From an uncultured Candidatus Saccharibacteria bacterium (GTDB lineage: Bacteria; Patescibacteriota; Minisyncoccia; Phycocordibacterales; SW-6-46-9), in assembly GCA_964534365.1 (NCBI GenBank), contig CAZHOI010000004.1, positions 1 through 57,179 on the forward strand: a DNA stretch of 57,179 nt, in the 5' to 3' direction. Positions 13,842 through 55,531 of this stretch are shown one piece after another. The position numbers and the translations under genes were made by a program. The first letter of the stretch is position 1. Each line of letters starts with the position of its first letter. The notes under the pieces were generated by a model. The model was not told where the DNA came from. It worked only from the letters and a program-made list of their open reading frames with translations, and did not search any database.

Positions 13842-13848
13842 ATTTTAT

Positions 13849-29523: not shown

Positions 29524-29576
29524 AACGCCTCTGTTGTCATGGTAGGGCTCGATTGCTGCTACACTTTAGACTAGTA

Positions 29577-30500
29577 ATGGCCGCCAATTATCTACCTTCT
29601 AAAAAGTTTCAAAAACGAGCTGGAATTGGCTTGGGGGTTTTGGCATTAATTTTGACTGCCGGCACTTTGTTCAACCTTGATTCCAATTCAACCGATGATG
29701 AGACCGCGCCACTAGCATTTTCTAAAACTGATTCAGATCAGGATGGTTTGCGCGATTGGGAAGAGAGAATTTGGGGCAGTGATCCATTCAATCCAGATAG
29801 TGACAATGACGGCATTCTTGACGGTCTCGAGGTCGAAGACGGCCGCGACCCCCTAAAAACGGGCGCTGATGAATTGACTGATTCACGTTTGGCGTCAGTT
29901 TATTCCGGCTACAAACGCCGAAGTCTGGAAAATATTAATATTACCGATCAAATATCTGACAAGATTTTGCCACACAGTTTATTGCTGGCTAACGAGCTAC
30001 GTGAAACCGATCGACTCGCCAACACCAATCGCACCGATTTATTAATTCAGCCGGTCGTCAATGAATATCGTATATCTGATAATAAACTTACTATCGAAGA
30101 CCTTAATCTGGTTCCAGCCAATGCCGAAAGTTTAACGAATTATTTCACCCTGGTGCTAGAAACTGCTAATTCCGGCCTTGGTAATATTGGGGGTAATGAA
30201 GTTTCGCTAGCTCTAAATAGCGATAATCTGAATGTGGAAAAAACCCTTAATAATTATCGCCGAGTGGTAAATGAATTGAGTCGCGCCAGCGTGCCCAGCC
30301 CAATTGCCGAACGTCACATAGCAGTTTTAAATAATTTTATCCGGATGCGAGATAGCTTTAATTTATTATTAAGCGCCGAAGAAGACGACAGTGCTAAAAA
30401 GATTTATGCCCTTGATGAACTAAAAATCCTGCAAAGTCAAAATCTGACTGAAATAGAAAGACTCGCCCAGGCGTGGCGTAATAGTGTCGATAATCTCTAA
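29577..30500 (+). CDS. Membrane-anchored protein with thrombospondin-type-3-like Ca-binding repeats (first gene of the T4SS-like locus)
   Basis: TM helix then DSDQDGLRDWEE / DSDNDGILDGLE repeats; start set to the ATG at 29577. Confidence 0.7.
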   Translation: MAANYLPSKKFQKRAGIGLGVLALILTAGTLFNLDSNSTDDETAPLAFSKTDSDQDGLRDWEERIWGSDPFNPDSDNDGILDGLEVEDGRDPLKTGADELTDSRLASVYSGYKRRSLENINITDQISDKILPHSLLLANELRETDRLANTNRTDLLIQPVVNEYRISDNKLTIEDLNLVPANAESLTNYFTLVLETANSGLGNIGGNEVSLALNSDNLNVEKTLNNYRRVVNELSRASVPSPIAERHIAVLNNFIRMRDSFNLLLSAEEDDSAKKIYALDELKILQSQNLTEIERLAQAWRNSVDNL

Positions 30501-33500: not shown

Positions 33501-34843
33501 AGACCGAATATTGTGACCCAAATATCGGTGTTTATGTATATCGCAATGGGGTCGAAATTGCCTCGGGCCTATCAGGGTCAGAATTGGATGACACCTTGGT
33601 TGGAGTCGATGCGACCGCTGTTTACGAGCTGTATTGTGGTCGACCTGATGAAACCATCGGCCGTCAGGCCCGATCAACTGATGATGGATCATATAATCAA
33701 AGTAATCGAAACAGAGGACTAGTCGCCCAACTATGGACTATGATTCTACCTACTGCCCAGGCCCAGGTAAATAGTCAGTCCAGCAATAATAAGGCCAGGT
33801 TATTGGACTATGTGATCGTAGATTCTAATTTAAGCGCCGGTAGTGCCGGCAATAATCCAGGCACTATTGCCCAATCCAGCGGAGTATTAACCATCAATGG
33901 TCGTAATAATAATTTCTCGATCGATTCATCGCGGGCTGATCTAAATATATCTTGGGTAACTGATCAATGTCCTACCGATTTAAACCTGTATCGGGACGCG
34001 ATCAATCTATACAGCGGCGAGGCTGACAGTGAATACCGCGACAATCGCATTGGATCCCCTGATACCTATCGTTACGAGCTCTACTGTGGCCAACGTCAAC
34101 CCCATTCGCGTGCTGATCGCGCTTCGGGATCATCTACTACAACCAATGTTAATGGCCAGGTTATCAGCAAATTATTAGACAGCATTCGTGTTAGCGTGAT
34201 TGATGATACTGATCCCGTTGTGATCGAAGATGACGACACCAATGATCCAGCTGTGGGTGATGATAACGAATCAGCTGACGATCAAACTGGTGACAGCCCT
34301 GAACCAAATGGCATTGATGATGATGGGGATGGTTGCATTGATGACACATCCCTAGATTCAGATGGCCAGTGCGACAATGGTGGAGCGTATAATGCCCCTG
34401 AAGAGAATACCGCAAATAATTTGGATGATGACAGTGACGGCTGTATTGATGATTCCTACTTGGACCCGGACGGCAGTTGTAATGATGGTGGCGATTATAC
34501 CCGTGGCGAAGACGAGACAGACCTAGATGAGAGCGCAAACAACATTAATGCAGTTGCCCTGACCAATGGCATTGATGATGATGGGGATGGATTAATTGAC
34601 GAAGACGACGAGGCCAGCCTACCGATTACTGATTTGTCTAATTTAGGTCAGGTTGAAAATGAGGATGAGTCGCCAATAATCTGGTGGTTGTGGCTGCTGA
34701 TACTGCTGTTGATTATTTTGATAGGATACTTTTTATATCGTCTGATTCGATCGCGTCGCAATAAAAATCAAGTTATCGAAATTAATGCTGCCAACGCCGC
34801 CCGACAAACAGAGGTGACGGTGCCAACCCCTGCTAAAAATTAG
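30506..34843 (+). CDS. Large secreted/surface protein (1445 aa) with tandem beta-rich domains, acidic DDDGDG repeats and C-terminal TM anchor
   Basis: Signal peptide (..YAAAQ), two ISW.T..C...YELYCG domains, three N(G/N)(I/L)DDD(G/S)DG repeats, WWLWLLILLLIILIGYFLY followed by RRNK. Confidence 0.75.
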   Translation: MNSGQLMKLLSKTISLTLGLVFAIVSFMPQYAAAQISSLEPQPPRAPNVEPGALQSIDLEDTNVGASLVTGGAFAIDECVDQPLGEFSGILSSNMTAMATEFLGGAGVVDEVSNAVATATNIANAALGLAQVGAKLGPLIGLPPGIGDFLGGAEKTQDDRTFNAILQSSTELTKLNAKIGEVQARGTSDILGVLQNMQVSDNCLDRVVFIQAQNLLFDMRNQASEWIVSGFEGGNPGFVQNIEQRERNLAAAQWLNFLDPDQGSFSGICSAFREDVVFNVRQAYNRSFGGDPAQVIPEVDLSTTEELLLRRAVTDDEGDGCALNQITGSEENTQRFLDGEFVTGSWEGWFTLFNDPNSNPNTASRVYTQQLNNSIQSEWDADRRRLAYSGGYLDDRRCIDENGNASEVGFAGICADGSDPITVTPGSAVAAVIEGLAQADIDRAVMVDKVGEVVESIGMTLIGQLFPTGSQSRAPGLANLSAQSFEQAFAQAYENTANFAGPNPDSFSIAMLDRQVSTEEAMYSMFSDIWELRNSQGFTDVEQCIEGNSNLQTSLQELDALIESIIPGSQSSLEAKYDYEPPGQYKVDWAGNDFEWLEEKVYGLETCEIDTYGDYETEIDQLLERFIDRPQFSFRMPTDGDSWQISICAPLGDGGRTQFFKIGYSPPGYREANNNLKVDWNGLPFNWKRYDPFQKENAYEIRQCDTRTEGEFGYSAGQRLSTDDVRGPSSSDWSAIYPIDGNERKGVRNWCVYFGHLLGFAECTGDNQDPESREQISIGMSRGLEYLLGTKLNYSVNGSGLLEINNSNWYRNRCALEGIGDVEGGKIYAAYKGYYDQSTQGSAAYSPQPKPTSLDVLLANIAVTLDGLPDLIAPQSIIDEVRPAGAADRAAIENGLYDLRQQFNSGTPSSLVAQSFYELAQNRNFHSREDVEIARSGYEQILNLYELILEQSEDCQTTPGGGVTDILADGDIAVDGINTYQDEIDLPNDYEQPITISWETEYCDPNIGVYVYRNGVEIASGLSGSELDDTLVGVDATAVYELYCGRPDETIGRQARSTDDGSYNQSNRNRGLVAQLWTMILPTAQAQVNSQSSNNKARLLDYVIVDSNLSAGSAGNNPGTIAQSSGVLTINGRNNNFSIDSSRADLNISWVTDQCPTDLNLYRDAINLYSGEADSEYRDNRIGSPDTYRYELYCGQRQPHSRADRASGSSTTTNVNGQVISKLLDSIRVSVIDDTDPVVIEDDDTNDPAVGDDNESADDQTGDSPEPNGIDDDGDGCIDDTSLDSDGQCDNGGAYNAPEENTANNLDDDSDGCIDDSYLDPDGSCNDGGDYTRGEDETDLDESANNINAVALTNGIDDDGDGLIDEDDEASLPITDLSNLGQVENEDESPIIWWLWLLILLLIILIGYFLYRLIRSRRNKNQVIEINAANAARQTEVTVPTPAKN

Positions 34844-34940: not shown

Positions 34941-37481
34941 GTGATTAAATGGTCGCGATTTTTATCAGTGGTTTACCATACAGTAGCGCGTTTTTTTAAA
35001 ACAATATTTTCCCGACTGCAATTATTTCTGACCAAAATAATTCAGTATAAATTTTCGATCATTACTATTGCTGTGGTCGCATTTATTGCGCTGCTGCCAG
35101 AAACTGCCTCGGCCAACATTAACTTTGGCTGTGGTGGGGTTGGAATAGGTGACGCTTTCCCGGATTTTCCGTGTTTATTAGGGCAAACCATGCTGCAATT
35201 AACCTCGGTATTTGCCTTTATTGCCGGTAATCTACTGGATTTGGTGACTAAATTATTTGTATTTGAAATGTCTACCACCCTGGAACAAGGGCAGCTGTTC
35301 GTTACGCCAGAAACTGGCGAATGGGCCGGGGTACCGGTATATCGCGCGATGTGGTTTATCGTGCGCGACCTTGCCAATTTGTCATTTATTTTTATTCTAA
35401 TTTATGCATCAGTGTCGATGATCTTTAACAATAAATTTGGACTAGATGCCAAAAAGATTGTCCCGCAGTTGGTACTAGTGGCAATACTCATGAATTTTTC
35501 ACTGTTTTTTGTACAGGTAGCCACAGATTTTTCCAACTATATTGCGTACCAGTTCTTTACCAATGTCGAAGTCCAGGTCTGGCAAAATGACGAGAATGAA
35601 GAGATTTTGATTGATCCTGAAACTGGCGAGCCGGCTTTTGTCCAAATCGGATCTACCGAATCAGGAGCCGCGACCCTGTCTGACATCATAATGAACGTTA
35701 CCAAGGTCACCGCGCTGGTGGCCAGCCCTGCCGATCTGGCCAGTTCGCAGGCAGCCAGTCGTAGTGCCGAGCTGGATCGTCAGCCCGGATTTGCGTTTGG
35801 ATTTTTTGCCAGTATATTCGTATTTTTTGCCGGTTTGGTTATGCTGGCTGGCGCATTTTTACTATTTCTGCGGTTTTTCATGATTTTGATATTTATGGTG
35901 TCGGCCCCAATTGCCTTTGCCTCTAGCATTGTCGAAGGAGGTAAAAACAAAGATAGTGGCAAAGGGTTGTTTAAAGGCTGGTGGTTGCCTGGACTAACCA
36001 ATCAATTGATTTTTGCACCGGCATATTTTGGACTGCTATATCTGGCCCTACAGTTTTTGCAAACGATTACTGATGCGGGGTTGGGCGCGCCCAAAGACTC
36101 GACCTTTGCCTATTGGGTTCAAAACGCCTTTATATTTATTGTGTCAGCTGCATTTCTGATTGCCGCTATATGGTATGCCAAAAGACTCTCGATTGCTGGT
36201 TCTAAACTAGCAGTAAATAACACTAAACGCATGTTTGCAGCAGGAGTTTTGGGTGGAGCTGGATTAGCAGGGCGTCAAACTATAGGGCGCTTATCAAATC
36301 GCTACCTAAACTCTAACCAAGATCGACTAAAACAAAGAATTGCAAGCGGTGGGGTTAGCGGTAAAATTGCCCGAATGCAATTAGATGCAGGTAAAAGGAT
36401 GACCAAAGCCAGTTTCGACGGACGACTAGCCCTTGATCGTATCCCAGGAATTAGAATGAATGAAATCTCTTATGGCAATCGTGATAGCCTCAAGAAAGGA
36501 TTCGGGGGAAGAAGAGCCGAAAAACTTGAGAAAGAAACCGAGAAGGTCGTAGACGTTGCACAAGCTCTAAATGAAAAGCAACGCGACCGTTACGCGAATA
36601 GGTTGATGTCACAAAAAACAGGGCTAAAGGGACTGTTCCAATTTATAACTCACAGTCAAGATGTTGAAACAGGAAAACTTGAACCTCGGCCCGGAGCAAA
36701 AAAACTACTGAACAAATATAATAATATTGTTATGGGCTTGGGCGGTTCACTAGAGGACAAATTACTTGAAGGAAGTCCTGGTTTAAGTAAGCGAAAAACA
36801 GCTGCTGCAGTAAATAGAACCAAGAATTTCTTAGCGCGTAATGAGCCAGTGTACGGTCAAGGGGCTGAGCCCGATTGGATTACAAAAGCGCAAGAAAGAG
36901 AAATAACCAAAAGGAAACATCAGGCTGAGGTTTTAATCGCAGAAAACGAACGAGAGGCCGCCACCTTAGAGCGCGAGATGGCTGAGCGTCAGGCAGAAGC
37001 TAAGAAACATGCTAACAGGCTTAAAGATTTACGTAAGAGGCTTGAAAGAGCGAGAGAGCTAGGAAATGAAACTGAGGTCAACCGATATGAAGGTGAATTG
37101 AATGATGAGCAGCAAAGATTGGCTGGAATAAACAATCAAATAAATACCAGGAACTCTCGGCTGAATACACTCAAAAAAGACACCGCCAGAATTCAAAAGG
37201 TGAAAAGTAGAAGAATAAACTCGGCAAGGGATGCATACAATCGAGATAGGACACAGATGCGTTACTCTAATGGAGGTTATATTAATTACAAATTAGGAAA
37301 CGCAATCTCTGGATCAAATTGGGAAAGAACTAAAACAAGTCTCAAGAAAAGAAAGGACGCAGATGAATATTTCAACCGTATGAAAGATGTCGTTAGTGAA
37401 GGGAACTTGAATGCTCCGGAAAAACGAACCGCTGCTGACGCTGGAGACTCAGAGGATTCTTCGGATGGAAACGAAAACTAA
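34941..37481 (+). CDS. VirB6/TrbL-like polytopic membrane protein with long basic coiled-coil C-tail
   Basis: W..VRDLAN..FIF, LV.VAIL.NFSLFF, multiple TM segments; context next to PrgI and VirB4. Confidence 0.7.
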   Translation: MIKWSRFLSVVYHTVARFFKTIFSRLQLFLTKIIQYKFSIITIAVVAFIALLPETASANINFGCGGVGIGDAFPDFPCLLGQTMLQLTSVFAFIAGNLLDLVTKLFVFEMSTTLEQGQLFVTPETGEWAGVPVYRAMWFIVRDLANLSFIFILIYASVSMIFNNKFGLDAKKIVPQLVLVAILMNFSLFFVQVATDFSNYIAYQFFTNVEVQVWQNDENEEILIDPETGEPAFVQIGSTESGAATLSDIIMNVTKVTALVASPADLASSQAASRSAELDRQPGFAFGFFASIFVFFAGLVMLAGAFLLFLRFFMILIFMVSAPIAFASSIVEGGKNKDSGKGLFKGWWLPGLTNQLIFAPAYFGLLYLALQFLQTITDAGLGAPKDSTFAYWVQNAFIFIVSAAFLIAAIWYAKRLSIAGSKLAVNNTKRMFAAGVLGGAGLAGRQTIGRLSNRYLNSNQDRLKQRIASGGVSGKIARMQLDAGKRMTKASFDGRLALDRIPGIRMNEISYGNRDSLKKGFGGRRAEKLEKETEKVVDVAQALNEKQRDRYANRLMSQKTGLKGLFQFITHSQDVETGKLEPRPGAKKLLNKYNNIVMGLGGSLEDKLLEGSPGLSKRKTAAAVNRTKNFLARNEPVYGQGAEPDWITKAQEREITKRKHQAEVLIAENEREAATLEREMAERQAEAKKHANRLKDLRKRLERARELGNETEVNRYEGELNDEQQRLAGINNQINTRNSRLNTLKKDTARIQKVKSRRINSARDAYNRDRTQMRYSNGGYINYKLGNAISGSNWERTKTSLKKRKDADEYFNRMKDVVSEGNLNAPEKRTAADAGDSEDSSDGNEN

Positions 37482-38347: not shown

Positions 38348-38698
38348 ATGGAGCAGAAAACCTTTCACGAAAAGCTATCAAACAAAATCGAGACTTTTAT
38401 TCACCAGTCATACGATATTGCTAATCAATTTCCAAAAGAAGAACTATACGGAGCAGGTTCACAACTTAAACGTGCAGCACTTTCGATCGGCTTAAACACG
38501 ACCGAAGGTTATGCTAGATCAAGCAGTAAGTCGTATCGTCACTTTTTATTAATTGCCTATGGGTCATTAAAAGAAAGTTTGTATGTTATTAACTTTTCTT
38601 CAAAGCGCTCTTGGATTACCACCAAACAATCGCAAGATCTTCTAGATAAAGGTGATGAATTGGGAAAAATGTTATGGAGCATTATCTCGAAACTGTGA
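38348..38698 (+). CDS. Four helix bundle protein (23S rRNA IVP-like family)
   Basis: FPKEELYGAGSQLKRAALSIGLNTTEGYAR, FLLIAYGSLKE. Confidence 0.9.
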   Translation: MEQKTFHEKLSNKIETFIHQSYDIANQFPKEELYGAGSQLKRAALSIGLNTTEGYARSSSKSYRHFLLIAYGSLKESLYVINFSSKRSWITTKQSQDLLDKGDELGKMLWSIISKL

Positions 38699-38725: not shown

Positions 38726-38758
38726 GCACTTGATAATTATTGTATAATTATCAAGTGC
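38726..38758. repeat. Perfect 15-bp inverted repeat over the prgI -10 box and GTG start
   Basis: gcacttgataattat-tgt-ataattatcaagtgc. Confidence 0.9.
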
Positions 38759-39174
38759 AGCATCAAACTCCGCAATTTATCGATATCGAAGACAAGGTGG
38801 TTGGACCGTTTACGGTCAAGCAATTTATTTATTTGATCGCCGGGGGAGGGGCCGCGTTTTTGCTGTTTCGATTTTTGCCATTTTTCTTGTTTTTAGTGGT
38901 AGCAACTCCTATTGTGTCGTTATTTTTGGCCCTGGCATTTTACAAACACAATGAACGTCCGTTTGTTCATTTGGTTGAGTCAGTTTTTAAATATTTGGTC
39001 AACACCAGGTTATATCTGTGGCGCCACCGCAAGCCAACTGACGTCGCCCGTGAACAGGCCAGTGTGCAAGCACCGCAAAAAACCAAAGTGGTTAATTCAG
39101 GGGCGGGCATGGGATCATCAAAGCTAAAGGATCTTTCTTGGAACCTAGAAGTCAAGAAAGAGGATCTTTCTTGA
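38755..39174 (+). CDS. PrgI family protein (T4SS VirB3-like membrane component)
   Basis: PQFIDIEDKVVGPFTVKQFIYL, two TM helices, LAFYK.NERPF; GTG start 6 nt after tataat. Confidence 0.85.
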   Translation: MQHQTPQFIDIEDKVVGPFTVKQFIYLIAGGGAAFLLFRFLPFFLFLVVATPIVSLFLALAFYKHNERPFVHLVESVFKYLVNTRLYLWRHRKPTDVAREQASVQAPQKTKVVNSGAGMGSSKLKDLSWNLEVKKEDLS

Positions 39175-39179
39175 CTTCT
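39147..39179. repeat. Perfect 15-bp inverted repeat over the prgI stop
   Basis: agaagtcaagaaaga-gga-tctttcttgacttct. Confidence 0.9.
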
Positions 39180-39194
39180 GACTTGAACCAGAAC

Positions 39195-39581
39195 ATGTAC
39201 ACGGACAACACAAGTATAAAACCAGATGGATTTAGATTTCTTAAGTGGCAAATTTATGACGATGCTCAAAATTTATATTTAGAAATAAATACAATCACTA
39301 AAGATCTGCCAAAAGCTATGCGATTTGAAGCCACCTCTCAACTGTTACGATCAAGCCATTCTGTAGTTTTAAACATAGCTGAAGGAGCTGGAAAAGAGTC
39401 CGATAAAGAACTTAGGACGTTTTTGTCAATTTCAATGGGTTCGCTGTATGAAACCGTGGCTTGCCTTGATTCATTGGTGAAACTTAACTTGATTAAAGAA
39501 AGTGAATTCCAAAATTTAAAGGCTCGTTACAATAAATTAGCGTCTCAAATAGGAGGTTTTAGAAAGTCTTTGAAACAGTAG
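39195..39581 (+). CDS. Four helix bundle protein (second copy, divergent)
   Basis: FRFLKWQIY, SQLLRSSHSVVLNIAEGAG, FLSISMGSLYETVACLD; start set to the ATG at 39195. Confidence 0.9.
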   Translation: MYTDNTSIKPDGFRFLKWQIYDDAQNLYLEINTITKDLPKAMRFEATSQLLRSSHSVVLNIAEGAGKESDKELRTFLSISMGSLYETVACLDSLVKLNLIKESEFQNLKARYNKLASQIGGFRKSLKQ

Positions 39582-39608: not shown

Positions 39609-39636
39609 TAACTTTTGCTATAATTAGCAAAAGTTA
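39609..39636. repeat. Perfect 12-bp inverted repeat over the -10 box and start of the 39636 gene
   Basis: taacttttgcta-taat-tagcaaaagtta. Confidence 0.85.
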
Positions 39637-40271
39637 TGGCTGAACCCCTCAAAGCACCAGCGACGCAAAACTTTGTTCCGGTGAAAGAAATCCGTGATGG
39701 GGTAGTGATATTGAAAAATAATTCATTGTGTGCGGTATTATTGGCTTCATCACAAAACTTTGCCCTTAAATCCGGCGACGAGCAGACCGGGGTATTAATG
39801 CAATTTCAAAATTTTCTAAATTCACTGGATTTTCCAGTACAGATTGTAGTGCAATCACGCAAAGCTGATATTCGACCCTATATCCAAATGTTGGAAGAGC
39901 GCCTGAAAACTCAAACCAATGAACTGTTACGGGTGCAAAACTATGAATACATCCGATTTGTGCAGTCGTTCGTTGAACAGGTAGATATTATGAAAAAGTC
40001 ATTTTTCGTAGTAGTACCTTATAATCCCGCTATCGCAGACACTACATCAATCACCTCCTTGGTCAAAGGTAAATCAACTGATGATCAACTAACGCTCGAG
40101 CGCTTTGAAGAGTTCCGCACCCAGCTAAATCAGCGATTGGCTATTGTCGAGTCAGGACTTAATCGTTCAGGTATTCGCACCTTGGCGTTAGGAACCGATG
40201 AACTGATCGAGTTGTTCTATCACACCCTAAACCCTGCTGATGCTACGTCAAATGCCCCAGTAAGCAGCTAG
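39636..40271 (+). CDS. VirB4/TraC-associated protein (resembles the N-terminal part of conjugative ATPases)
   Basis: TQ.FVPVKEIRDGVVILK, S.NFALKS.DEQ, FLNSLDFPVQIVVQSRK.DI.PY; lies directly upstream of VirB4. Confidence 0.7.
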   Translation: MAEPLKAPATQNFVPVKEIRDGVVILKNNSLCAVLLASSQNFALKSGDEQTGVLMQFQNFLNSLDFPVQIVVQSRKADIRPYIQMLEERLKTQTNELLRVQNYEYIRFVQSFVEQVDIMKKSFFVVVPYNPAIADTTSITSLVKGKSTDDQLTLERFEEFRTQLNQRLAIVESGLNRSGIRTLALGTDELIELFYHTLNPADATSNAPVSS

Positions 40272-40378
40272 CTGCTTACTGACAACTAATAAAATCTGAG
40301 TCGCTTAGTGATTTCTTAGATTGTAAGTAGTTAGTTGTAGGTGGTAGGAGGTTAAAATTAGATGCTATAATTTTAACC
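40258..40378. repeat. Gene-less palindromic cassette between the 39636 gene and VirB4
   Basis: 24-bp perfect palindrome 40258-40281; nested stems; 7-mer array 40321-40348; 11-bp inverted repeat 40350-40360/40368-40378. Confidence 0.8.
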
Positions 40379-40380
40379 AC

Positions 40381-42180
40381 ATGGGACTTCTGGACTTTAT
40401 AAAATCTGATGACAAACCCGAGCCAGCAGCGGCTGATTCTGGTATCAGCAGCCTGGCATTGTCGGATGTGATTGCTCCATCTGCGCTCGAGATCAAGCCC
40501 AAATCAGTTAACGTATCTGGTAAATTGGCCCGAACGTTATTTGTAATTTCTTATCCCCGTTTTTTAACTGACGGCTGGTTTGCCCCGATTATCAACCTGG
40601 ATCGAATCTTTGACGTTTCACTGCATATTCATCCGGTAGATACTGGGGATTTATTAAAGAAATTCCAGAAAAAAGTAGCCGAGGTTGAATCACAAATCTC
40701 TATACGGCAAGAAAAGGGCATGGTGCGCGACCCAAAATTGGAAACCGCTTATCGTGATCTGGAAAATTTGCGTGATCAGTTAATGCAGGCCCAGGAAAAA
40801 ATGTTTGATGTCGGTCTCTACCTAACTATTTATGCCGATAATGAAACCGATTTAAATAAATTTGAATCCGAAATCAAATCAATTCTCGAGTCCAAATTGA
40901 TTTATCTGAAACCCGCCCTATTTCAGCAAGAACAAGGCCTGCAAACAGTACTACCGACCGCTACTGACGCCCTGCAGGTTCAGTCCAAACTAAACTCGTC
41001 CCCGTTATCGAGCCTATTTCCATTTTTATCCTTTGATTTGTCATCAGACACCGGGATTCTTTACGGTATCAATCGACATAATTCCGGATTGATCTTATTC
41101 GATCGATTTTCAATGCCCAATTACAATTCGATCACCTTTGCGACCTCTGGAGCGGGTAAATCATTTGCCACGAAGCTCGAGCTACTACGATCAATGATGT
41201 TTGATATTGACGTGATTGTGATTGACCCCGAGCGCGAATACGAATATTTGGCCGAGGCGGTAGGGGGCCGGTATTTCAATATCTCATTATCGTCCGAACA
41301 CCACATCAACCCATTTGATATTCCACCGGTCGGCCCAGATGAATCACCCGAGGACGTCTTGCGGTCACATATCATCTCTTTGGTGGGATTATTTCGCATT
41401 ATGTTAAGCGGACTTACTCCTGAAGAAGATTCGATAATAGACCAGGCGATTACCGAGACCTACGCCCTCAAAGACATCAATCCGGGAATTGATTTTAGTC
41501 AAGCCGAGCCACCACTGTTGTCAGATTTCGAACTGGTATTAGCCGGTATCGAAGGGGCCGAAAATATTCTAGCGCGACTGGCCAAATACACTCGTGGTAC
41601 CTGGTCTGGATTTCTGAATCGTCCGTCAAATGTCGATATTAATAAGAAGTTTATTGTTTTTTCGGTGCGTGACATGGAGGACGAGCTAAAACCAGTCGCC
41701 ATGCATTTGATTACTAACTTTATCTGGAACCGAGTGAGGCGTGAACTGCGCAAACGAATTTTGGTAATTGACGAGGCCTGGTGGATGATGAAAGAAGAAG
41801 ATACGGCATCATTTTTATTTGGTCTAGCCAAACGAGGTCGTAAATACTATCTGGGTGTATCAACCATTACCCAGGACGTCGGCGATTTCCTGCGGTCGCC
41901 ATATGGTTTGCCAATTATCACTAACTCGTCAATCCAGCTTTTGTTAAAACAATCGCCAACTTCAATTGATTTACTGCAAGAGACTTTTAACCTAACTGAT
42001 GAAGAAAAATATCTGCTGTTGGAATCAGGGGTAGGCGAGGGCATATTCTTTGCCGGTTTAAAGCACGTAGCCATTCGCATTATTGCGTCCAATACCGAAT
42101 CCCAAATCATAACCTCGGACCCATCCGAGATACTGGCGATTAAAAAGGCCAAACAGCAATTTGCTGACAGTAATGAATAA
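40381..42180 (+). CDS. VirB4/TraC-family type IV secretion ATPase
   Basis: Walker A ATSGAGKS, IDPEREY, HHINPFD, Walker B LVIDEAW, GRKYYLG...ITQDV.DFL. Confidence 0.9.
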   Translation: MGLLDFIKSDDKPEPAAADSGISSLALSDVIAPSALEIKPKSVNVSGKLARTLFVISYPRFLTDGWFAPIINLDRIFDVSLHIHPVDTGDLLKKFQKKVAEVESQISIRQEKGMVRDPKLETAYRDLENLRDQLMQAQEKMFDVGLYLTIYADNETDLNKFESEIKSILESKLIYLKPALFQQEQGLQTVLPTATDALQVQSKLNSSPLSSLFPFLSFDLSSDTGILYGINRHNSGLILFDRFSMPNYNSITFATSGAGKSFATKLELLRSMMFDIDVIVIDPEREYEYLAEAVGGRYFNISLSSEHHINPFDIPPVGPDESPEDVLRSHIISLVGLFRIMLSGLTPEEDSIIDQAITETYALKDINPGIDFSQAEPPLLSDFELVLAGIEGAENILARLAKYTRGTWSGFLNRPSNVDINKKFIVFSVRDMEDELKPVAMHLITNFIWNRVRRELRKRILVIDEAWWMMKEEDTASFLFGLAKRGRKYYLGVSTITQDVGDFLRSPYGLPIITNSSIQLLLKQSPTSIDLLQETFNLTDEEKYLLLESGVGEGIFFAGLKHVAIRIIASNTESQIITSDPSEILAIKKAKQQFADSNE

Positions 42181-42185: not shown

Positions 42186-42854
42186 ATGGCCCGAAATACT
42201 AGTTCAGTAAATTCTGAACCGACCCAGCGCCGGCGAAAATCATTCAACCTCGACCCGATTGATTCAAACCGTAATCGCAGTGATCAGTTCAGCGGCTATC
42301 AAGATGACCTGACCCCAAGATCAACCACCAAACAGCAATTGCGAAAGAGTTCTGGACTGACATCAATAAAAAAAGAACGGGAAGGATCAGATTTTGAAGT
42401 AAATCCTACTGGTGAGCTAGGCAACAGACGCCCATCGCCTAATCGAATACGTCGCAATGATCAACGTCGCAGCCAAACGTCTGGCAGACGTGCAGCCACA
42501 AAACTAATTAAAAACGCGGTTGATTCTAAGGGCAACCTTGCCGGGTTAGCCCTGAAATCCCTGGGTGATGCCGAGCTGCGAAAAGTTTTTATGGAACATT
42601 TTTGGATTTTAGCTATTGCAGTTATCGGTGATTTACTAGACGCCATTCCATTTTTTATTGGTTTTTTTATCAATTTAATATGTTGGATCCTGGTGAAATA
42701 TCTTTTTGATTTAAAAGGTGTCAATTTTGCTGGCCGGGTTACTAAAAACTCCTTTGGCCTGATGAATGTTGGTGCTGAAGTAATTGTCGGGGCAATCGCA
42801 TTTTGGCCTGGATTAACCATTGGTGTAATTCAAACCATTCTCTCTGAAGATTAA
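42186..42854 (+). CDS. Hypothetical membrane protein (basic disordered N-half, C-terminal hydrophobic hairpins)
   Basis: ILAIAVIGDLLDAIPFFIGFFINLICW; co-oriented in the T4SS-like locus. Confidence 0.6.
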   Translation: MARNTSSVNSEPTQRRRKSFNLDPIDSNRNRSDQFSGYQDDLTPRSTTKQQLRKSSGLTSIKKEREGSDFEVNPTGELGNRRPSPNRIRRNDQRRSQTSGRRAATKLIKNAVDSKGNLAGLALKSLGDAELRKVFMEHFWILAIAVIGDLLDAIPFFIGFFINLICWILVKYLFDLKGVNFAGRVTKNSFGLMNVGAEVIVGAIAFWPGLTIGVIQTILSED

Positions 42855-42874
42855 TATCTTGCTATACTTAGCGT

Positions 42875-43528
42875 ATGAAGGTTTCATTAATAATTTTTGC
42901 TGCTTTGCTAGTTACTGTTCTAGGTTTAACCTCCGAGTCTCAAGCTCAGAATAGTAATGTGGTTTTGATTGCCGAATCTGATTCATATGTGCCTAGTAAC
43001 TATGCTGGAGCTCGACCTCTTACCCCTGGTTCAACCATTAGCCTAGTAGCCTTGGGAGCTCCGCGAATTGCTAAATATCAGTGGCGCATTAATGGTCGTC
43101 AATTGACCGAGCTGTCTGGCATTGGCCAGTCACGGGTTGATATTCAATTAACCGATCGACCAATTGATGCCCAGGTATCGGTTTATCAAAACAGTGATTT
43201 GATCGGGGTAGACCAAATAACCATAAATCCCGATCCATTGGAAATTGTCCTATACCAAAATCATCCGACCAGGGGACCACTGTTTCAAACTGCCTTGTCA
43301 GGCCAAATCCGATCAACCAGTCCGGTAATTGATATTATTGGTAGTGCCTATGGTGCCAATGGAGTCAATCCGCTGTTGCAGTGGCAAATTAACAACAGCG
43401 AATCATTTGCCCTACCTGCTGTTTCACTGGATCGGCAAGCTAGTCCACAAACCACCATTGTCGCTAGCTATCTTAACAATATTTTTACCCAGGCAACCAA
43501 AGAGCTGCGGATTCAATTCAGTCGCTAG
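42875..43528 (+). CDS. Hypothetical secreted beta-rich protein
   Basis: Signal peptide ending SQA-Q; own tatact box 6 nt upstream. Confidence 0.65.
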   Translation: MKVSLIIFAALLVTVLGLTSESQAQNSNVVLIAESDSYVPSNYAGARPLTPGSTISLVALGAPRIAKYQWRINGRQLTELSGIGQSRVDIQLTDRPIDAQVSVYQNSDLIGVDQITINPDPLEIVLYQNHPTRGPLFQTALSGQIRSTSPVIDIIGSAYGANGVNPLLQWQINNSESFALPAVSLDRQASPQTTIVASYLNNIFTQATKELRIQFSR

Positions 43529-43534
43529 ATTTAT

Positions 43535-44716
43535 ATGAAATTAAATGATAAAACTAAATTTTTAATCGCCGGCGGGGTATTGGCCCTGCTGTTTGTAATA
43601 TTGTTTTTCTACTACCTCAACCGGGCCACAAATCGCCTTGGCTCAGAAACTGCCACCGTGCCTAATAATAGCCAGTTTGAGGTCCTAGATAGTTCAGGTA
43701 ATTTAGTAGCTGGCAATCAGCCTAGCCCTAGCCAGAATTCTGAAAATCAATCCGAAATACAACTAATCAGTGAAGGCCCGGTGGCCGGATTTAGGATTGT
43801 TGAAAATGATTTTGGAGTGGCACTGCGATACATTAGCGCCGAAACTGGTCAGATTTATAATTATTTACCTGGCCCTAGTGCGACAACACGCCTAACTACT
43901 GACACCCTGCTGGCAATCACCCGCGCACAGTGGGTAGGCAACGATCATATTTTATTGACCTATTATGCTGAAGGACAGCCGGTTAATTTATTAGCCCAAA
44001 TTGATCTAGCAAACGCCAGACTGAATACCGTGGTTTTTCCCCAAACCCTCGAGTCGATTGCCAAGGCTGATGATGACCAGGCGTATTATCTATTGCGGGA
44101 CAATGAGGGCAGCAGTTTGTATCGATATCAATTTGATACTGGGCGTAGTAATTTTGTTCAGGCATTTGATATTAGCGCTCTCGATTTGCGCGACATTGAT
44201 GGGGAAAGCGATTTATTGCTGGCAACTACAAAAATTCATCAGAGCCATGATCAAGCTGGACTGATAATTGATGTTGCGGACAATTCATCAAGCCTGCTAC
44301 AAACCGGAGTTGAATTCTCCCAAGGAGCGCTGCTATTTGAAAACTTTAGGGTATTAATCAACCAGGCCGGTCTGGTACTGCAAAATATTGATTCGGGAGA
44401 AGATATTTTGGTTGCGGGAAATTTTGTGGTTGATAAATGTGCCGTCGATTTAATGTCAACCGGCGAGCTAGTATGTGCCGAGGTAATTCTGACGTCCTCG
44501 CAATTGCGTAATTGGCCGACCAACTGGTTTCGCGGGCAATTACGTCCTGTCGAGCGGCTAGTTGCGATCAACCCCCAGTTTGGCAGTAAACGGATTTTGG
44601 CTGATTTGGGATCTCAATATGATATCAGTTACTTACAAACCTCGGCCGATGACATTTATTTCATCAACCGTCGCGACGGGCGATTGTATAGTTATGAAGT
44701 AGCTAATTTAGATTGA
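43535..44716 (+). CDS. Membrane-anchored protein, probable beta-propeller-like ectodomain
   Basis: N-terminal TM helix; repeated short beta-strand pattern. Confidence 0.6.
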   Translation: MKLNDKTKFLIAGGVLALLFVILFFYYLNRATNRLGSETATVPNNSQFEVLDSSGNLVAGNQPSPSQNSENQSEIQLISEGPVAGFRIVENDFGVALRYISAETGQIYNYLPGPSATTRLTTDTLLAITRAQWVGNDHILLTYYAEGQPVNLLAQIDLANARLNTVVFPQTLESIAKADDDQAYYLLRDNEGSSLYRYQFDTGRSNFVQAFDISALDLRDIDGESDLLLATTKIHQSHDQAGLIIDVADNSSSLLQTGVEFSQGALLFENFRVLINQAGLVLQNIDSGEDILVAGNFVVDKCAVDLMSTGELVCAEVILTSSQLRNWPTNWFRGQLRPVERLVAINPQFGSKRILADLGSQYDISYLQTSADDIYFINRRDGRLYSYEVANLD

Positions 44717-44769: not shown

Positions 44770-46383
44770 GTGAAGTCAGTTTTATTTAATTGTTTTGTTT
44801 TATCATTTGCTTTGTTAGGGGTTTTTTCAGTTGTCCAGGCTCAGGATTATGCCGCTCCAGCTAGTAACCCAGTTTGTTCAAGAAATGTACAAGATGCAGT
44901 TTACTGCGCTGCTTTTGAACGCCTCGACGAGCAACTATATGAAGTGTATTTCAGGAACTCAGAAGCTTGCGAAGACTTTTGTAACGACACAACCTGTAAA
45001 AGCACGCCAGAATGTATAAACCTTGCCATTGAAGATTCTGGCACCACCCCTCAAGGACAAGCTTGCTTTAATGCCCAAAACTACTGTAGGGCGCGCTCAG
45101 AAGACAATTGTCAGGCGCTTAACAATGGAACCAGGGAAGTAAATTGTGAATATGTAGAAAATAGTGATCAATGTATTCCGTCTAGGGGTGAATGTGGGAG
45201 TTATTGTTATTCAGAGGTAGATTGGCAAAATGAAGTAGTATGCCGTGATAGCCGTGATGAATGCATAATAGAGCTTCTTGATGAAAACCCGGAACCCGGA
45301 GACTTGCGATTCCCTGCGTGTGGTTGTGATCAATCAAATGTTTCAGTTGAACAAGCCAATGGCGGTTGTGGATTACGAGTAGGCACCAGTGCCAGTGAGT
45401 GGCGTGAGGGAATCGGCGACGACAATCAATCTCTATTTGGTTCTCCAATTGATGCGTCATTCGAATTGGATGGATTCAAGCCGTTTGAAGACGTAAGGGT
45501 GGGGGATAATGAATTATATGGCGATAACAACTTGCCCGGCTTTATTAATACGTTTCTAAGCTTTGTGATTGGGTTGTCCGGGGCCATTGTGGTCGTCATG
45601 ATAGTAGTTGGTGGATTTCAATACGTGCTGGCGGCGGCGGCACCAGTTAAAAATGATGCCAAAGACAAGATTCGGGATGCCCTGATCGGTTTGGGACTAT
45701 TGCTGGGATCTGTCGCATTACTAAACACTATTAACCCACAGCTGCTAAACCTGGCGGGATTACGACCGGTAGAAATTACTATCACCGAGCGTGAGTTTCA
45801 AGGTGATACTGATGTGTTGCTAGGATTGGGTGGTGCAAATTATGGCAGTGATGCGGTGCAGAAGGCAATTTATGAATATGAAGCCAATTGGGCGAGCGGT
45901 ACAAAGAAAGAAGACGATGAATCTCAATACTCAATACTCAATACTTACTGGGAAAGTATTGGGTGGAACGAGTCTCAATGGTCACCATCTGGTACTGCAT
46001 GGAGCGCCGCTTTTATCTCTTATGTAACTGGTTTGCGAGCTTCAGCCCATTGGCAGTACATTAATGCAGCTTATGATGATCGGAAAAATGGCTGGGCCTT
46101 CTGTGAACCTAATGAACACGTTCCGCAACCAGGAGACTTAGTATGTCGAACCAGGGCAGGTGGCTCATTTACTCCTCAAGGAAGCTATACTTCACATTGT
46201 GATTTAGTAGTATCTAACAATGGAACCTCAATCGAATATATTGGTGGTAACGTCTCAAATTCTAGCTCTGAGGGCCGGGGTGTAACGGTAAATAAAAAGT
46301 CTAGATCGCTTTCAGCTGGCAAAACACCTTCATTCTTTAATATTGGCGCCTTAGTTCCTCCGGGTAAAAATTGTTCCGGCTAA
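44770..46383 (+). CDS. Pilin (TrbC/VirB2-like) fusion: Cys-rich domain + pilin + DUF2272/CHAP-like domain
   Basis: Signal peptide, 18 Cys, pilin hairpin (..MIVVGGFQY...AKDKIRDALIGL.LLL....LNTINPQL), C-terminal WSAAFISYV..P.PGDLVC..SHCDLVV..GGN; GTG start 6 nt after tataat. Confidence 0.75.
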   Translation: MKSVLFNCFVLSFALLGVFSVVQAQDYAAPASNPVCSRNVQDAVYCAAFERLDEQLYEVYFRNSEACEDFCNDTTCKSTPECINLAIEDSGTTPQGQACFNAQNYCRARSEDNCQALNNGTREVNCEYVENSDQCIPSRGECGSYCYSEVDWQNEVVCRDSRDECIIELLDENPEPGDLRFPACGCDQSNVSVEQANGGCGLRVGTSASEWREGIGDDNQSLFGSPIDASFELDGFKPFEDVRVGDNELYGDNNLPGFINTFLSFVIGLSGAIVVVMIVVGGFQYVLAAAAPVKNDAKDKIRDALIGLGLLLGSVALLNTINPQLLNLAGLRPVEITITEREFQGDTDVLLGLGGANYGSDAVQKAIYEYEANWASGTKKEDDESQYSILNTYWESIGWNESQWSPSGTAWSAAFISYVTGLRASAHWQYINAAYDDRKNGWAFCEPNEHVPQPGDLVCRTRAGGSFTPQGSYTSHCDLVVSNNGTSIEYIGGNVSNSSSEGRGVTVNKKSRSLSAGKTPSFFNIGALVPPGKNCSG

Positions 46384-46964
46384 ATCTTAAAGTTAAAGGT
46401 TTTGGTATCGGTACCAAATTCACTAATGTTATTTAGCTCTCTAGGGTGTTTATGCAAAACTATTTGATAGTTGCTACCGTAGTTTACACATGGGGCTTCA
46501 TAACTTTGATAGGATGCTTTTTGGGAAAATGATTCATTGTTTAACGAGCGGGCAACGACCTCGCCGGTGTCAATTGATTTGATATAAAATGACAAATAAC
46601 TTTGGTTTGAATAATTACTATAGGTTATTGGCAGGGGTTGGTCATTGCATTTGTATGCTTCAGACAACATTTTGCTTGAAATAGCATCGGTGTAAACGGT
46701 GATAAAGTCCGTGGTTTGGCTTGGATCACCCAATGATGCGATTATTATATTGTCACTTACTAATTCAATATCATTATTGTCTGGTTCAGCAATTGACTGG
46801 CTGGCAAAACCGGATTGATCGATGTCAAATGATTGGGTAGGGCCGGTTGTGTTATCGCCCTCCTCGGTAAAGCTGACTCTGCCAGTTTGGCTTAGAAATA
46901 ACACTATAAATATGCTTATAATGACCATTAAAACTCCGGTAATAATTAAAAGTTTTTTATTCAT
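46380..46964 (-). CDS. Hypothetical membrane-anchored protein convergent with the pilin fusion
   Basis: KKLLIITGVLMVIISIFIVLFL anchor; stop overlaps the pilin-fusion stop by 4 nt. Confidence 0.6.
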   Translation of the reverse strand: MNKKLLIITGVLMVIISIFIVLFLSQTGRVSFTEEGDNTTGPTQSFDIDQSGFASQSIAEPDNNDIELVSDNIIIASLGDPSQTTDFITVYTDAISSKMLSEAYKCNDQPLPITYSNYSNQSYLSFYIKSIDTGEVVARSLNNESFSQKASYQSYEAPCVNYGSNYQIVLHKHPRELNNISEFGTDTKTFNFKI

Positions 46965-52849: not shown

Positions 52850-55375
52850 TTAATCTTCGATAGGAGTCAATATGCTGCCGCTTTGATCATCCTCTTGGTC
52901 CTCGTTATCTGACTGATCATCCGATTGCATATCACCAGGTATTCTTGGCTGCCGGTCCTCTTCGGCCGGTTCTGGTTCAGAGTCAGTAGTAAAATTGATC
53001 GAGAATTCGCCAACCTTACCTGATCCTGTTAATAAGATTCGCAAGGTGTGTCGATTGCCTCCCGAAAGCAAGCTTTGATCGAGGGTAAAGCTAACCACAC
53101 CAGAGTCGGTTGTAGATCCGGCTAAATTACCATCGATAAATACGGCCATATTATCAATCTGATCATCAGAAACCGCTACCAGATCAATAACATCACCAGG
53201 ATTATAACTACTTTGAGCGCCGAGAATTTCAAAATTAAGAACATTGCGATTATCAATATCAAGTTGATAGTCACCAGTTGTCGATCCAAAGTTGTTGTAA
53301 CCCAGGTAAGCACCACTAGCTACCCAGCGCCTGACTGACGTTTCCCAATTCTGAAATTGATTATCACGTTGTGGATTCTGCGGTGGAGGTCCTAATGGGT
53401 CTTGGCGGTCAACCCAAGCCAAAATCGAATGAATTGAATTGGGGCCACCAGTGCGCCACACTCCTCGCAGAATTGGTTTCAAATCATCATAATCAGTATC
53501 TGGCCGAGCAAAAGCCTGACCTTCGTATCCTTGATCAATTGCCTCATTCATAATCTCGTTCCAGATTGGGCTAACAATCAGACCTGACAATCCATTCATA
53601 GACCGATTGTCATTATTTCCAGCCCACACCCCAATAACAATGTCGGTATTGTAACCGACTAACCAAGCGTCCCGGCTATTATTAGTAGTACCACTTTTTG
53701 CAGCGGTGTTAGGAATATTGATCAAGGAATTAGCTCCCCATAATGGGGTTCGAGCTGCATTATCAGACAATATACTATTGATTTGTCTGGCAACTTGGCG
53801 ATCTAATATCCGTGAGCCTTCGCGATCTTTGGTTTCCAGTAAAATATCACCGGATTTATCAATTACTTCCAGAATCGGAGTATGTTTGGCCACACGACCA
53901 TCATTGGCAAATCCCGCATAGGCGCCCGTCATGTCAACCAAGGTTACCTCGCCACCCCCTAAAACCAGAGTAAGGCCATATTGGTCAATGTCATTTAGGG
54001 TAGAAATACCCAAGCTCTCGGCCGTGTCGACGGAATTCTGTAGTCCTGACAGATAAAAAGCTTTGACTGCTGGAATATTACGAGACTGAGCCAGGGCTTG
54101 TCTGATAGTCATCGGTCCTTTATAGCTGCCATCGTAGTTTATAGGGGCATAACAGCCGTCATCATTACTAAATTGTCCGGCCGGGCAGTTGACATTAAAT
54201 TGGGTTCGCAAATCAAACAAAACCGTGTCTGGGGTGTAACCTTGATCAAATGCTGTGGCGTAAATAAATGGTTTAAAAGTAGAACCTGGTTGTCTGAGGG
54301 CAGTAGCGGCATTAAATTTACCATCAAAACTATCATCAAACCAATCGCGCGAACCGACCATGGATAGGATCTGTCCGTTGTCAGGGTCAATGGCTACAGC
54401 CGCTGCATTTTCAGCATTGTGACGATCAATATTGCGTTCACCATAACGCTTGACAATGTCCTCGGCTTCTTCTTGCAGCTCTAGATCCAGAGTGGTAATT
54501 ACTCGCAAACCACCGTTTTCTACTACTTCGGTACCCAGCTGTTCTTCTAGAATCGAGCGAACATAGAACACAAAATGCGGTGCGCGAATACCTTGGGCCG
54601 ATCGCGGTTTGAACGCGACTTCCTCGTCTTTAGCTTCACTGGCCTCGTCTGGAGTGATGTAACCCAAATTAACCATTCGATCAAGTACCAAGCTCTGTCG
54701 GCGTTGCAGGGCCTCTACATTCTCGCCATATGGTGAGTAATAGGTTGGGGCCTGTGGCAGAGCAGCTAAATAGGCAGCCTCGGCCAGCGTAAGTTCGGCG
54801 GCGGTTTTATTGAAGAAGCTTCTGGCGGCTTCCTCGGCGCCGTAAATAGTTCCGCCATAAGGACTTTCATTTAAATATATTTCTAGGATTTCGTCTTTTT
54901 CTAGCAAGCGCTCTAATCTGATTGCTAAAATCGCTTCTTTGATTTTTCGCGTGTAAGATTTTTCGCGTGTTAGAAGTGCATTCTTTACCACTTGCTGGGT
55001 AATGGTTGATCCACCTTGGGTTCGGCCACCCTCGCGCAGGTTAGTCACAGCCGCACGTAAAATTGATTCGGGTCTGACACCCGAATGCTCATAAAAAGTA
55101 TCATCCTCAATTGCAATAGCCGCTTGCTGTAAGTATTCGGAAATCTCTTCTAGCTCGACCTCGGTTCGTCGTACGTCTTGATTAAAATCAAATAAAACAA
55201 ATTCACCAGTTCGGTCGTAAATTTTGGTAGATTGTAGCGCACGACGTTCTTCGAAATTATTTAGGGTGGGCAATTGCAAAGTAGCGGCCCAAATAATACT
55301 TCCGGTAATAAATATTAACCCTGCCAAAATAGCAATTCTAATTATTCGCCAGCCGGTAGAAAAGATTTTTTTCAT
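52850..55375 (-). CDS. Class A penicillin-binding protein (PBP1A family) with C-terminal beta domain and acidic tail
   Basis: Transglycosylase EDDTFYEH.G, GGSTITQQVVKN, RKIKE; transpeptidase STFK, SRN, KSGT; start set to MKKIF. Confidence 0.93.
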   Translation of the reverse strand: MKKIFSTGWRIIRIAILAGLIFITGSIIWAATLQLPTLNNFEERRALQSTKIYDRTGEFVLFDFNQDVRRTEVELEEISEYLQQAAIAIEDDTFYEHSGVRPESILRAAVTNLREGGRTQGGSTITQQVVKNALLTREKSYTRKIKEAILAIRLERLLEKDEILEIYLNESPYGGTIYGAEEAARSFFNKTAAELTLAEAAYLAALPQAPTYYSPYGENVEALQRRQSLVLDRMVNLGYITPDEASEAKDEEVAFKPRSAQGIRAPHFVFYVRSILEEQLGTEVVENGGLRVITTLDLELQEEAEDIVKRYGERNIDRHNAENAAAVAIDPDNGQILSMVGSRDWFDDSFDGKFNAATALRQPGSTFKPFIYATAFDQGYTPDTVLFDLRTQFNVNCPAGQFSNDDGCYAPINYDGSYKGPMTIRQALAQSRNIPAVKAFYLSGLQNSVDTAESLGISTLNDIDQYGLTLVLGGGEVTLVDMTGAYAGFANDGRVAKHTPILEVIDKSGDILLETKDREGSRILDRQVARQINSILSDNAARTPLWGANSLINIPNTAAKSGTTNNSRDAWLVGYNTDIVIGVWAGNNDNRSMNGLSGLIVSPIWNEIMNEAIDQGYEGQAFARPDTDYDDLKPILRGVWRTGGPNSIHSILAWVDRQDPLGPPPQNPQRDNQFQNWETSVRRWVASGAYLGYNNFGSTTGDYQLDIDNRNVLNFEILGAQSSYNPGDVIDLVAVSDDQIDNMAVFIDGNLAGSTTDSGVVSFTLDQSLLSGGNRHTLRILLTGSGKVGEFSINFTTDSEPEPAEEDRQPRIPGDMQSDDQSDNEDQEDDQSGSILTPIED

Positions 55376-55531
55376 ATGTTGATTACTTGGTTGATAAGCA
55401 GGGGATATCTTTGGCGCTAGTATACTCAAAAAAACGTCCTGACGTAAGTAATTTGATAAGTAATCGTGGGAGTTTAGAGACTTATATTCAGACTGAATCC
55501 AATTTCAGGTTTTGGTATGATATTGTTCTAG

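Follow-up and report, generated by a model that had tools for sequence, protein, structure and literature searches.

Patescibacteria depend on other cells, and in the one system tested their type IV secretion system (T4SS) is essential. Published work on this machinery covers VirB2-like pilins, their arrays, the essentiality in Ca. Southlakia and the origin-proximal location of the T4SS (PMC10633639, PMC12102498, PMC12857230), an example being the pilin array that is essential in Ca. Southlakia epibionticum (Wang et al. 2023, PMC10633639; Quinonero-Coronel et al. 2025, PMC12102498), and one of these papers concludes that pilus biogenesis in these bacteria may not need VirB1 (PMC12102498). How does such an apparatus cross the murein? 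The question is raised by the last gene of a long plus-strand monoderm-type T4SS operon beside dnaA in a Paceibacteria genome, located on the 57,179-nucleotide (nt) stretch of contig CAZHOI010000004.1 that was analysed as a whole and is referred to here as the window. The gene joins a VirB2-like pilin hairpin to a Cys-rich module on one side and to a DUF2272 domain of the wall-enzyme type on the other, and its product is very probably a pilin-tethered extracytoplasmic wall enzyme serving the T4SS. Pilins, origin-proximal T4SSs and Ser-type DUF2272 domains are already known; the Cys-rich/pilin/wall-enzyme architecture and its modularity are new, and no description of pilin-wall-enzyme fusions was found in full-text literature searches.

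The initial annotation, made from the sequence, had read the gene as a pilin fused to an 18-Cys domain and to a DUF2272/CHAP-like domain. Its coordinates and content were accurate, and the three-part architecture is real according to Pfam, hydrophobicity and AlphaFold2 (AF2). The protein of 537 amino acids (aa) consists of a signal peptide, the Cys-rich module, a VirB2/T4SS_pilin-type hairpin, a linker and the C-terminal DUF2272 domain, with approximately 230 aa on the N-terminal and 215 aa on the C-terminal side of the hairpin:

44770..46383, plus strand: complete coding sequence of the pilin-DUF2272 fusion, 537 aa plus stop, with a GTG start as in the identical database protein P0001
44770..44841, plus strand: Sec-type signal peptide, aa 1-24, with predicted cleavage between VQA and QD (hydrophobicity, sequence)
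44842..45414, plus strand: lineage-specific Cys-rich extracytoplasmic module with 18 Cys at aa 36-200 (nt 44875-45369)
45460..45768, plus strand: VirB2/T4SS_pilin module (hidden Markov model (HMM) envelope, aa 231-333)
45532-45630, plus strand: pilin helix 1, aa 255-287 (AF2)
45640-45732, plus strand: pilin helix 2, aa 291-321, ending in the conserved NTINPQLL (AF2)
45733..45843, plus strand: linker NPQLLNLAGLRPVEITITEREF, about 35 aa, from the hairpin to DUF2272, the point of head exchange in relatives (alignment)
45844..46380, plus strand: DUF2272 domain with a CHAP/NlpC-P60-like fold (Pfam PF10030, AF2, Foldseek against BFVD)
46003..46005, plus strand: codon of Ser412, at the papain-like nucleophile position and the N-terminus of model helix 62-71 (invariant in 33 sequences; AF2)
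46195..46197, plus strand: codon of His476 in the HCD motif, candidate general base at the start of model strand 126-134 (invariant; AF2)
46249..46251, plus strand: codon of Asn494 in the IGGN motif, candidate third triad residue just past the next strand (invariant; AF2)

An alternative start upstream, TTG at 44743, is possible. The signal peptide, the VirB2-like hairpin and the Cys residues, exactly 18 of them, were all found as described initially. The hydrophobic stretches of the hairpin (aa 257-293 and 303-322, nt about 45538-45735) are modelled by AF2 as a helix-loop-helix with a predicted local distance difference test score (pLDDT) of about 93-95, and the loop APVKNDAKDKIRD (aa 288-290/302) is rich in Lys/Arg, with four such residues. 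A cleavable-type signal peptide followed by two hydrophobic helices with a short basic loop is the make-up of a pilin. Because of the signal peptide and the two helices joined by the basic loop, both modules appended to the hairpin are placed outside the cytoplasm, and the Cys content of these flanks (18 and 4, respectively) fits this topology, in which the C-terminal domain is not cytoplasmic.

The hairpin also resembles the Patescibacteria PF18895 pilins in its family, its signal peptide and its GGFxY...K..I..A..GL...NTINP motifs, and the gene likewise adjoins virB4 in a monoderm-type T4SS near dnaA, with no relaxase or coupling protein seen nearby. It shares its locus with virB4 and virB3, and this synteny is kept in loci L004 and L088. 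A profile of the hairpin and its relatives retrieved 209 proteins; the matches listed, 120 of the 209, are 97-186 aa long and mostly PF18895, and the few source-named entries among them include Patescibacteria 'pilin'. The fusion departs from the Patescibacteria pilins, which are single-domain proteins of about 100-190 aa often encoded in arrays, in its length, in having modules at both ends and in being the sole pilin found: no second pilin open reading frame (ORF) was detected by pilin HMM scan in the 57-kb window.

The cell-wall function proposed initially for the C-terminal domain is strongly supported, because relatives with the same scaffold carry VanY, SLT or SLT_3-like domains at the position of DUF2272. 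On the Cys-rich-pilin scaffold the C-terminal head is DUF2272 in P0001 and P0002, VanY in P0004 (locus L004, with the gene order of the window), an SLT_3-like lysozyme domain in P0005 and, in P0040, SLT with the classic motifs TESNG, GLTQI and AYNGY, while the head of the second L088 paralogue has no Pfam match and shows H..D and H.H motifs by eye. The fusion protein of the window itself contains neither SLT nor Cys-type NlpC/P60, though the scaffold relatives have SLT. In P0003 and P0006 a short pilin is joined to DUF2272 and the Cys module is absent. A look-up of these proteins by cluster yielded no public names. The linker pattern ..RPIxVTITxEEF is conserved among the relatives and is the recombination junction, and the proteins share a trait of polymorphic effectors, in that the N-terminal scaffold is conserved and gives way abruptly to C-terminal domains unrelated to one another. 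The comparison of L004 with L086 is a clean cassette exchange: positions 4132-7305 of the former match 1-3174 of the latter with 99.97% identity along 3174 nt, and all similarity is lost at codon 353, at the end of the conserved ..TITQEEFDR linker, beyond which the head is VanY in L004 and SLT_3-like in L086. Locus L088 contains two tandem Cys-rich pilin fusions (10001-11737 and 12316-14031) with a 184-aa ORF between them; the DNA of the two pilin cores is 92% identical over 404 nt, as though it had been homogenised, the N-terminal modules resemble each other only in part and the heads are unrelated (SLT and the unassigned H..D/H.H domain). In L001 the P0003 fusion adjoins a pilin of 131 aa that stands alone and is closely paralogous to the pilin part of the fusion, and free-standing pilins of the family stop 0-16 aa past the TINPxL motif, where the linker of the fusions starts.

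As only short proteins were among the matches listed for the hairpin profile, the fusions were surveyed instead by scanning 80 virB4 loci, taken from GTDB species representatives, locally with a pilin HMM. A pilin ORF was found in 67 of the 80 loci, and in 46 of these 67 at least 100 aa follow the hairpin; only one of the 46 loci with extended pilins has a plain short pilin as well within the 10-kb flanks. The C-terminal extensions, 56 in number, fall into 32 BLAST clusters. Known peptidoglycan-active domains are carried by at least 20 of 60 scanned extended pilins, the heads recognised by Pfam being NlpC/P60 (5), VanY (3), CHAP (2), DUF2272 (2), YkuD (2), SLT_2 (2), Peptidase_M15_4 (1), SLT (1) and 3D (1). 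In several loci an SLT-pilin adjoins an NlpC/P60-pilin, the two activities that are combined in TraG (pIP501), PrgK and CwlT. These sequence data suggest that in Paceibacteria loci related to the window the pilin gene often includes the wall enzyme. Three head clusters that lack a Pfam match show glucosaminidase-like or LAS-peptidase-like motifs by eye; they gave no sequence matches in the PDB and no hhalign links to one another or to the assigned clusters.

Two further kinds of loci were noted in the same survey. Extended pilins in L052 (13232-14365) and L053 (3694-4815) bear a long low-complexity head that appears coiled-coil-like by eye. In L011 (12731-14184) and L080 (7152-8575) the pilin ORF overlaps an NlpC/P60-like or VanY-like ORF in a different frame; these are either fusions in split form or products of frameshift error.

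The assignment of the C-terminal domain itself is firm at the level of the family. PF10030 matches it with E=1.4e-15 and 58 bits against a cut-off of 27, and the motifs quoted initially (YWESIG, AWSAAFISYV, H427, PQPGDLVC, SHCDLVV and IGGNVSNS) were all located. The initial statement that DUF2272 members carry WS at the position of the catalytic Cys was correct, W411-S412 being invariant in 33 of 33 aligned sequences. Beside Ser412, His476 and Asn494, 13 further positions are invariant across these divergent sequences; the invariant residues comprise W411-S412-A-A-F, H427, Y430, G455-D456, H476 and I-G-G-N494, and Cys459, Cys477 and Asp478 are nearly invariant. The presence of Ser in place of Cys had been treated initially as the striking point, but it is not a peculiarity of this gene: DUF2272 has already been classed in the NlpC/P60-CHAP group among the few papain-like families with a conserved Ser for Cys (PMC10318531). 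Because Ser412 is conserved across DUF2272 and published as such, it is a hallmark of the family and not a degenerate site. It is ordinary; the interesting and new part is the fusion architecture together with its modularity. The fusion agrees with the published family (Ozhelvaci and Steczkiewicz 2023, PMC10318531) in HMM membership, in the invariant Ser of WSAAF, His of HCD and Asn of GGN and in the predicted CHAP-like fold. The family was described as mostly proteobacterial (PMC10318531), and the relatives found in this analysis are fused to other wall enzymes; the present member occurs in a Patescibacteria genome and has a T4SS pilin as its partner.

For aa 350-537, AF2 gives a model with a pLDDT of 84.7 and a predicted template-modelling score of 0.84, which places Ser, His and Asn in a papain-like arrangement. 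Compared by Foldseek with BFVD, a collection of predicted viral structures, the model finds as its best match a DUF2272 protein of a Caulobacter phage (E 4.5e-7, TM 0.72); the next matches are CHAP, NlpC/P60 and endolysin proteins of phages (E 1e-5 to 1e-3, probability 1.0). The papain-like fold suggested initially is therefore upheld by both the model and the matches. Pfam CHAP is weakly matched by 17 of the 33 family members (best E 2e-6). When DUF2272 was aligned by hhalign with the NlpC/P60 heads fused to pilins, the probability was 2-6%; the GDLV motif and the His motif align, His476 pairing at this low probability with the NlpC/P60 His, and the nucleophile is offset by one residue. The overall CHAP/NlpC-P60 fold and the His on the following beta-strand are thus found by AF2, hhalign and Foldseek, with Ser412 in place of the catalytic Cys. 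Other DUF2272 relatives are fused to GH25, Amidase_2, VanY, glucosaminidase and peptidoglycan-binding domains. Judging from this conservation and from the model, the domain most likely cleaves peptidoglycan by means of Ser412-His476-Asn494 instead of Cys-His-Asn/Glu.

The N-terminal module is rare. Fifteen of its 18 Cys are invariant among the five proteins that share it, and since an exhaustive HMMER search of 1.84 billion sequences found only 3 representatives, it appears to have no wider family. It has no match in Pfam, the PDB or Foldseek, and a genome scan of GTDB species representatives gave no relative of the Cys-rich-pilin alignment. The AF2 model of this domain plus the hairpin is of low confidence in the Cys-rich part (pLDDT 38-85), and the Foldseek matches were rejected as a source of a fold, being generic helical hairpins with E>1.

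Taken together with the topology, these data point to the following course of events. Sec would export the fusion and the signal peptide would be removed; the two pilin helices would enter the membrane as a hairpin whose Lys/Arg loop faces the cytoplasm, leaving the 18-Cys module at the N-terminus and DUF2272, past the linker, on the outer face of the membrane. The wall-cutting job of hydrolases of the VirB1/PrgK/CwlT type would in this way be joined directly to the pilin and the enzyme would work beside the machine. If VirB4 extracts the subunit into a pilus or conduit as it would an ordinary VirB2, the enzyme would come to lie along the structure or at its end and would open the murein there. 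A wall-hydrolase-type domain that is encoded inside a T4SS operon and predicted to be exposed outside the membrane, presumably in an active form, is a VirB1-like trait, and we find it rather probable that this pilin-anchored extracytoplasmic enzyme opens murein for the T4SS and does the job of VirB1, possibly along or at the end of a pilus or conduit. Incorporation of the fusion subunit into the filament is a somewhat less certain part of the proposal, with the chances slightly below even. As for the substrate, the host cell's wall is favoured as an important target alongside the producer's own because heads are exchanged between near-identical strains; that it is a main target we would put at even odds. 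Extended pilins of this kind may explain how cell-dependent ultrasmall bacteria get past cell walls, and their exchangeable wall enzymes offer a concrete and testable answer to how the apparatus crosses murein. The heads would also be a possible determinant of host specificity, and DUF2272, an uncharacterised Ser-type papain-like domain, gains a defined biological setting for assays.

Several points weigh against this interpretation. The fusion itself scores 25.2 bits with Pfam T4SS_pilin (E=1.8e-5), 1.4 bits short of the cut-off of 26.6, and more weakly with TrbC/VirB2 (0.02) and the NCBIfam Mbov_0395 pilin (1e-3); its scaffold relatives P0005 (34.3 bits) and the second L088 paralogue (29.9 bits) exceed the cut-off. 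No demonstrated activity has been reported for any DUF2272 protein, and the functional proposal for the family was termed speculative by its own authors (PMC10318531). Neither the whole fusion protein nor the DUF2272 profile has a sequence match in the PDB, and Foldseek matches of the C-terminal domain to the PDB are weak, with CHAP coming first (9eum, E 0.086; PlyC, E 0.11). About two thirds of the extended-pilin heads carry no recognised domain. Heads of about 230 and about 180 aa may not, by a steric estimate, pack in a canonical VirB2 helical filament. The pairs of SLT- and NlpC/P60-pilins fit remodelling of the cell's own wall equally well. The 194-aa ORF that follows the fusion was considered as a possible immunity gene; it does not covary with the type of head and so is not an obvious one. 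Head swapping in near-identical strains, the extreme diversity of heads and the variable N-terminal modules favour a host-directed role; the pairing of SLT with NlpC/P60, the absence of an immunity gene that covaries with the head and the bulk of the two heads favour self-remodelling by a membrane-resident protein.

The best-surviving alternative takes up this last possibility. The hairpin might be only an anchor or docking element that never polymerises, and the protein a membrane-bound VirB1 analogue that opens the cell's own peptidoglycan as PrgK, TraG (pIP501) and CwlT do. The organism has murein of its own, because the window encodes a class A penicillin-binding protein (52850-55429) and an M23-LysM peptidase (25426-26328); monoderm T4SSs need such hydrolases, and a recognisable VirB1 is missing from most Patescibacteria clusters (PMC12102498). 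The tandem SLT-pilin and NlpC/P60-pilin genes mirror the two-domain TraG/PrgK, and the two bulky heads would speak against tight packing in a filament. However, there is little reason for a housekeeping enzyme acting on its own cell to exchange heads between 99.97% identical strains, or for 56 heads to have diversified into 32 sequence clusters. The hairpin, moreover, appears to be a full member of the pilin family with a free-standing close paralogue beside the P0003 fusion, and an extended pilin is the sole pilin near virB4 in most loci. We therefore regard a purely anchoring role as somewhat unlikely.

It would be less likely still that the pilin is a carrier, from which the head is cut off at the linker to act as a free secreted enzyme or effector while the trimmed pilin forms an ordinary pilus. 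C-terminal processing of a VirB2-type pilin is established for TrbC of RP4, which, with the release of VirB1*, offers an analogy. Free-standing pilins end exactly where the linker of the fusion starts, the linker is conserved and serves as the recombination junction, and the steric problem would be removed. Nevertheless, a scan of operon ORFs revealed no maturase resembling TraF or a signal peptidase, and the N-terminal module of 230 aa would remain attached.

The DUF2272 head might also be a non-enzymatic peptidoglycan-binding module, a papain-like fold that has lost its Cys, and the fusion an adhesin-pilin gripping the wall. The replacement of the nucleophilic Cys by Ser and the silence of the literature on DUF2272 activity agree with this, and inactive NlpC/P60-like binders exist, e.g., DUF1175 (cited in PMC10318531). 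Yet the invariance of Ser412, His476, Asn494 and the 13 other positions in divergent sequences is what would be expected for catalysis, the negatively charged pocket is compatible with Ser-based catalysis (PMC10318531), and the heads of scaffold relatives show catalytic motifs by eye (SLT E-S/GLTQI/AYNGY in P0040, VanY in P0004), so that a mere binding function appears quite improbable. An artefact of assembly or gene calling that joined separate pilin and hydrolase genes, such as the different overlapping frames in L011 and L080 might suggest, can practically be dismissed, since the ORF is uninterrupted, the identical 537-aa protein occurs on independent contigs from different sources and dozens of independent genomes share the architecture.

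If the pilin-anchored enzyme does enter the filament, a bolder proposal may be put forward tentatively, which we hold to be rather less probable than not. The T4SS filament or conduit of Paceibacteria would be built of 'armed' pilins, all or a defined subset of the subunits bearing interchangeable murein-cleaving heads and often a variable adhesin-like module, and would drill the wall of the partner; recombination at the conserved linker would exchange the heads, driven by an arms race against the wall chemistry of the host. Armed pilins would then supply the VirB1 function that is missing and, in a secretion system essential to an episymbiont, would also be a determinant of host range.

Comparison with known systems places the fusion close to PrgK (pCF10), TraG (pIP501), CwlT (ICEBs1) and TcpG (pCW3), the VirB1-like peptidoglycan hydrolases of monoderm conjugation systems, which are likewise encoded in T4SS operons and are membrane-tethered with extracytoplasmic domains of the SLT, CHAP or NlpC/P60 type; the paired SLT and NlpC/P60 heads of the relatives correspond to the two-domain make-up of the PrgK/TraG/CwlT type. 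Those proteins, however, have a simple N-terminal transmembrane anchor and a Cys nucleophile; the fusion is tethered by a centrally placed pilin hairpin, and its head, a Ser-type DUF2272, is of an exchangeable kind. A more distant analogy is provided by the lysozyme-like domain of V. cholerae VgrG-3 and by phage tail-tip or tape-measure lysins, in which a machine that punctures cells likewise has a structural subunit with an interchangeable peptidoglycan hydrolase head; these belong to unrelated machinery (the type VI secretion system and the phage tail, respectively), and their spike or tip stoichiometry is known.

The operon that ends with the fusion runs in the order TSP3-repeat protein, 1445-aa protein, 846-aa protein, 281-aa ORF, PrgI/VirB3, split VirB4, three ORFs and fusion:

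29553-30500, plus strand: bacterial TSP3-repeat protein at the head of the operon
30506-34843, plus strand: 1445-aa surface protein; signal peptide, 22 Cys, transmembrane segment at the C-terminus; no Pfam match
34941..37481, plus strand: 846-aa polytopic membrane protein in which a large hydrophilic part accompanies 6 or more hydrophobic segments (hydrophobicity; no Pfam match)
38740..39174, plus strand: PrgI/VirB3-like T4SS component (Pfam PrgI, 3.2e-9)
39636..42180, plus strand: VirB4 ATPase as two ORFs (domain matches)
39636-40271, plus strand: VirB4 TraC-like N-domain ORF, 211 aa (domain match)
40381-42180, plus strand: VirB4 P-loop ATPase ORF, 599 aa (domain match)
42186..44716, plus strand: three conserved membrane or secreted ORFs of 222, 217 and 393 aa between virB4 and the fusion (transmembrane or signal segments)

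The 1445-aa protein, which the TSP3-repeat protein precedes, may represent cargo of the T4SS locus with a surface or adhesion role, and the 846-aa protein is, from its hydrophobicity, a candidate extended VirB6-like channel subunit. The two virB4 ORFs are separated by a gap of 110 nt; because L001, L004 and L088 are split alike, this is a feature of the lineage and not a pseudogene. The order and sizes of the 222-, 217- and 393-aa ORFs are the same in L004, L086 and L088. Two 23S_rRNA_IVP (four-helix-bundle) genes, at 38348-38698 and 39138-39581, flank prgI, and one is found at the same position in L088. The nearest VirB4 proteins (70-76% identity in the best segment) come from metagenome-assembled genomes labelled as Paceibacteria/Parcubacteria (Nomura-, Kaiser-, Taylor-, Wolfe- and Yonathbacteria), generically as Patescibacteria, or as 'uncultured Candidatus Saccharibacteria' or plain 'bacterium'.

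Upstream of the operon lies ksgA, and on the 3' side of the fusion are jag, yidC, rnpA, dnaA and dnaN; an origin-proximal arrangement next to jag-yidC-rnpA-dnaA has been published for the Paceibacteria T4SS (PMC12102498). The 194-aa membrane-anchored ORF mentioned above (46380-46964, minus strand) is convergent with the fusion, overlapping its stop by 4 nt, and at its own start it overlaps the stop of jag. It has weak orthologues in L087 and L088 whatever the type of head; the membrane-anchored ORFs downstream of the fusions are in general positional orthologues irrespective of the head, and the remaining downstream ORFs are unrelated. Elsewhere the window has ordinary chromosomal content, with four tRNA genes (Gly-TCC, Pro-TGG, Gly-GCC and Arg-TCG) and a tyrosine recombinase (XerC/D-like) (7179-7510, 11756-12256, 14861-15802).

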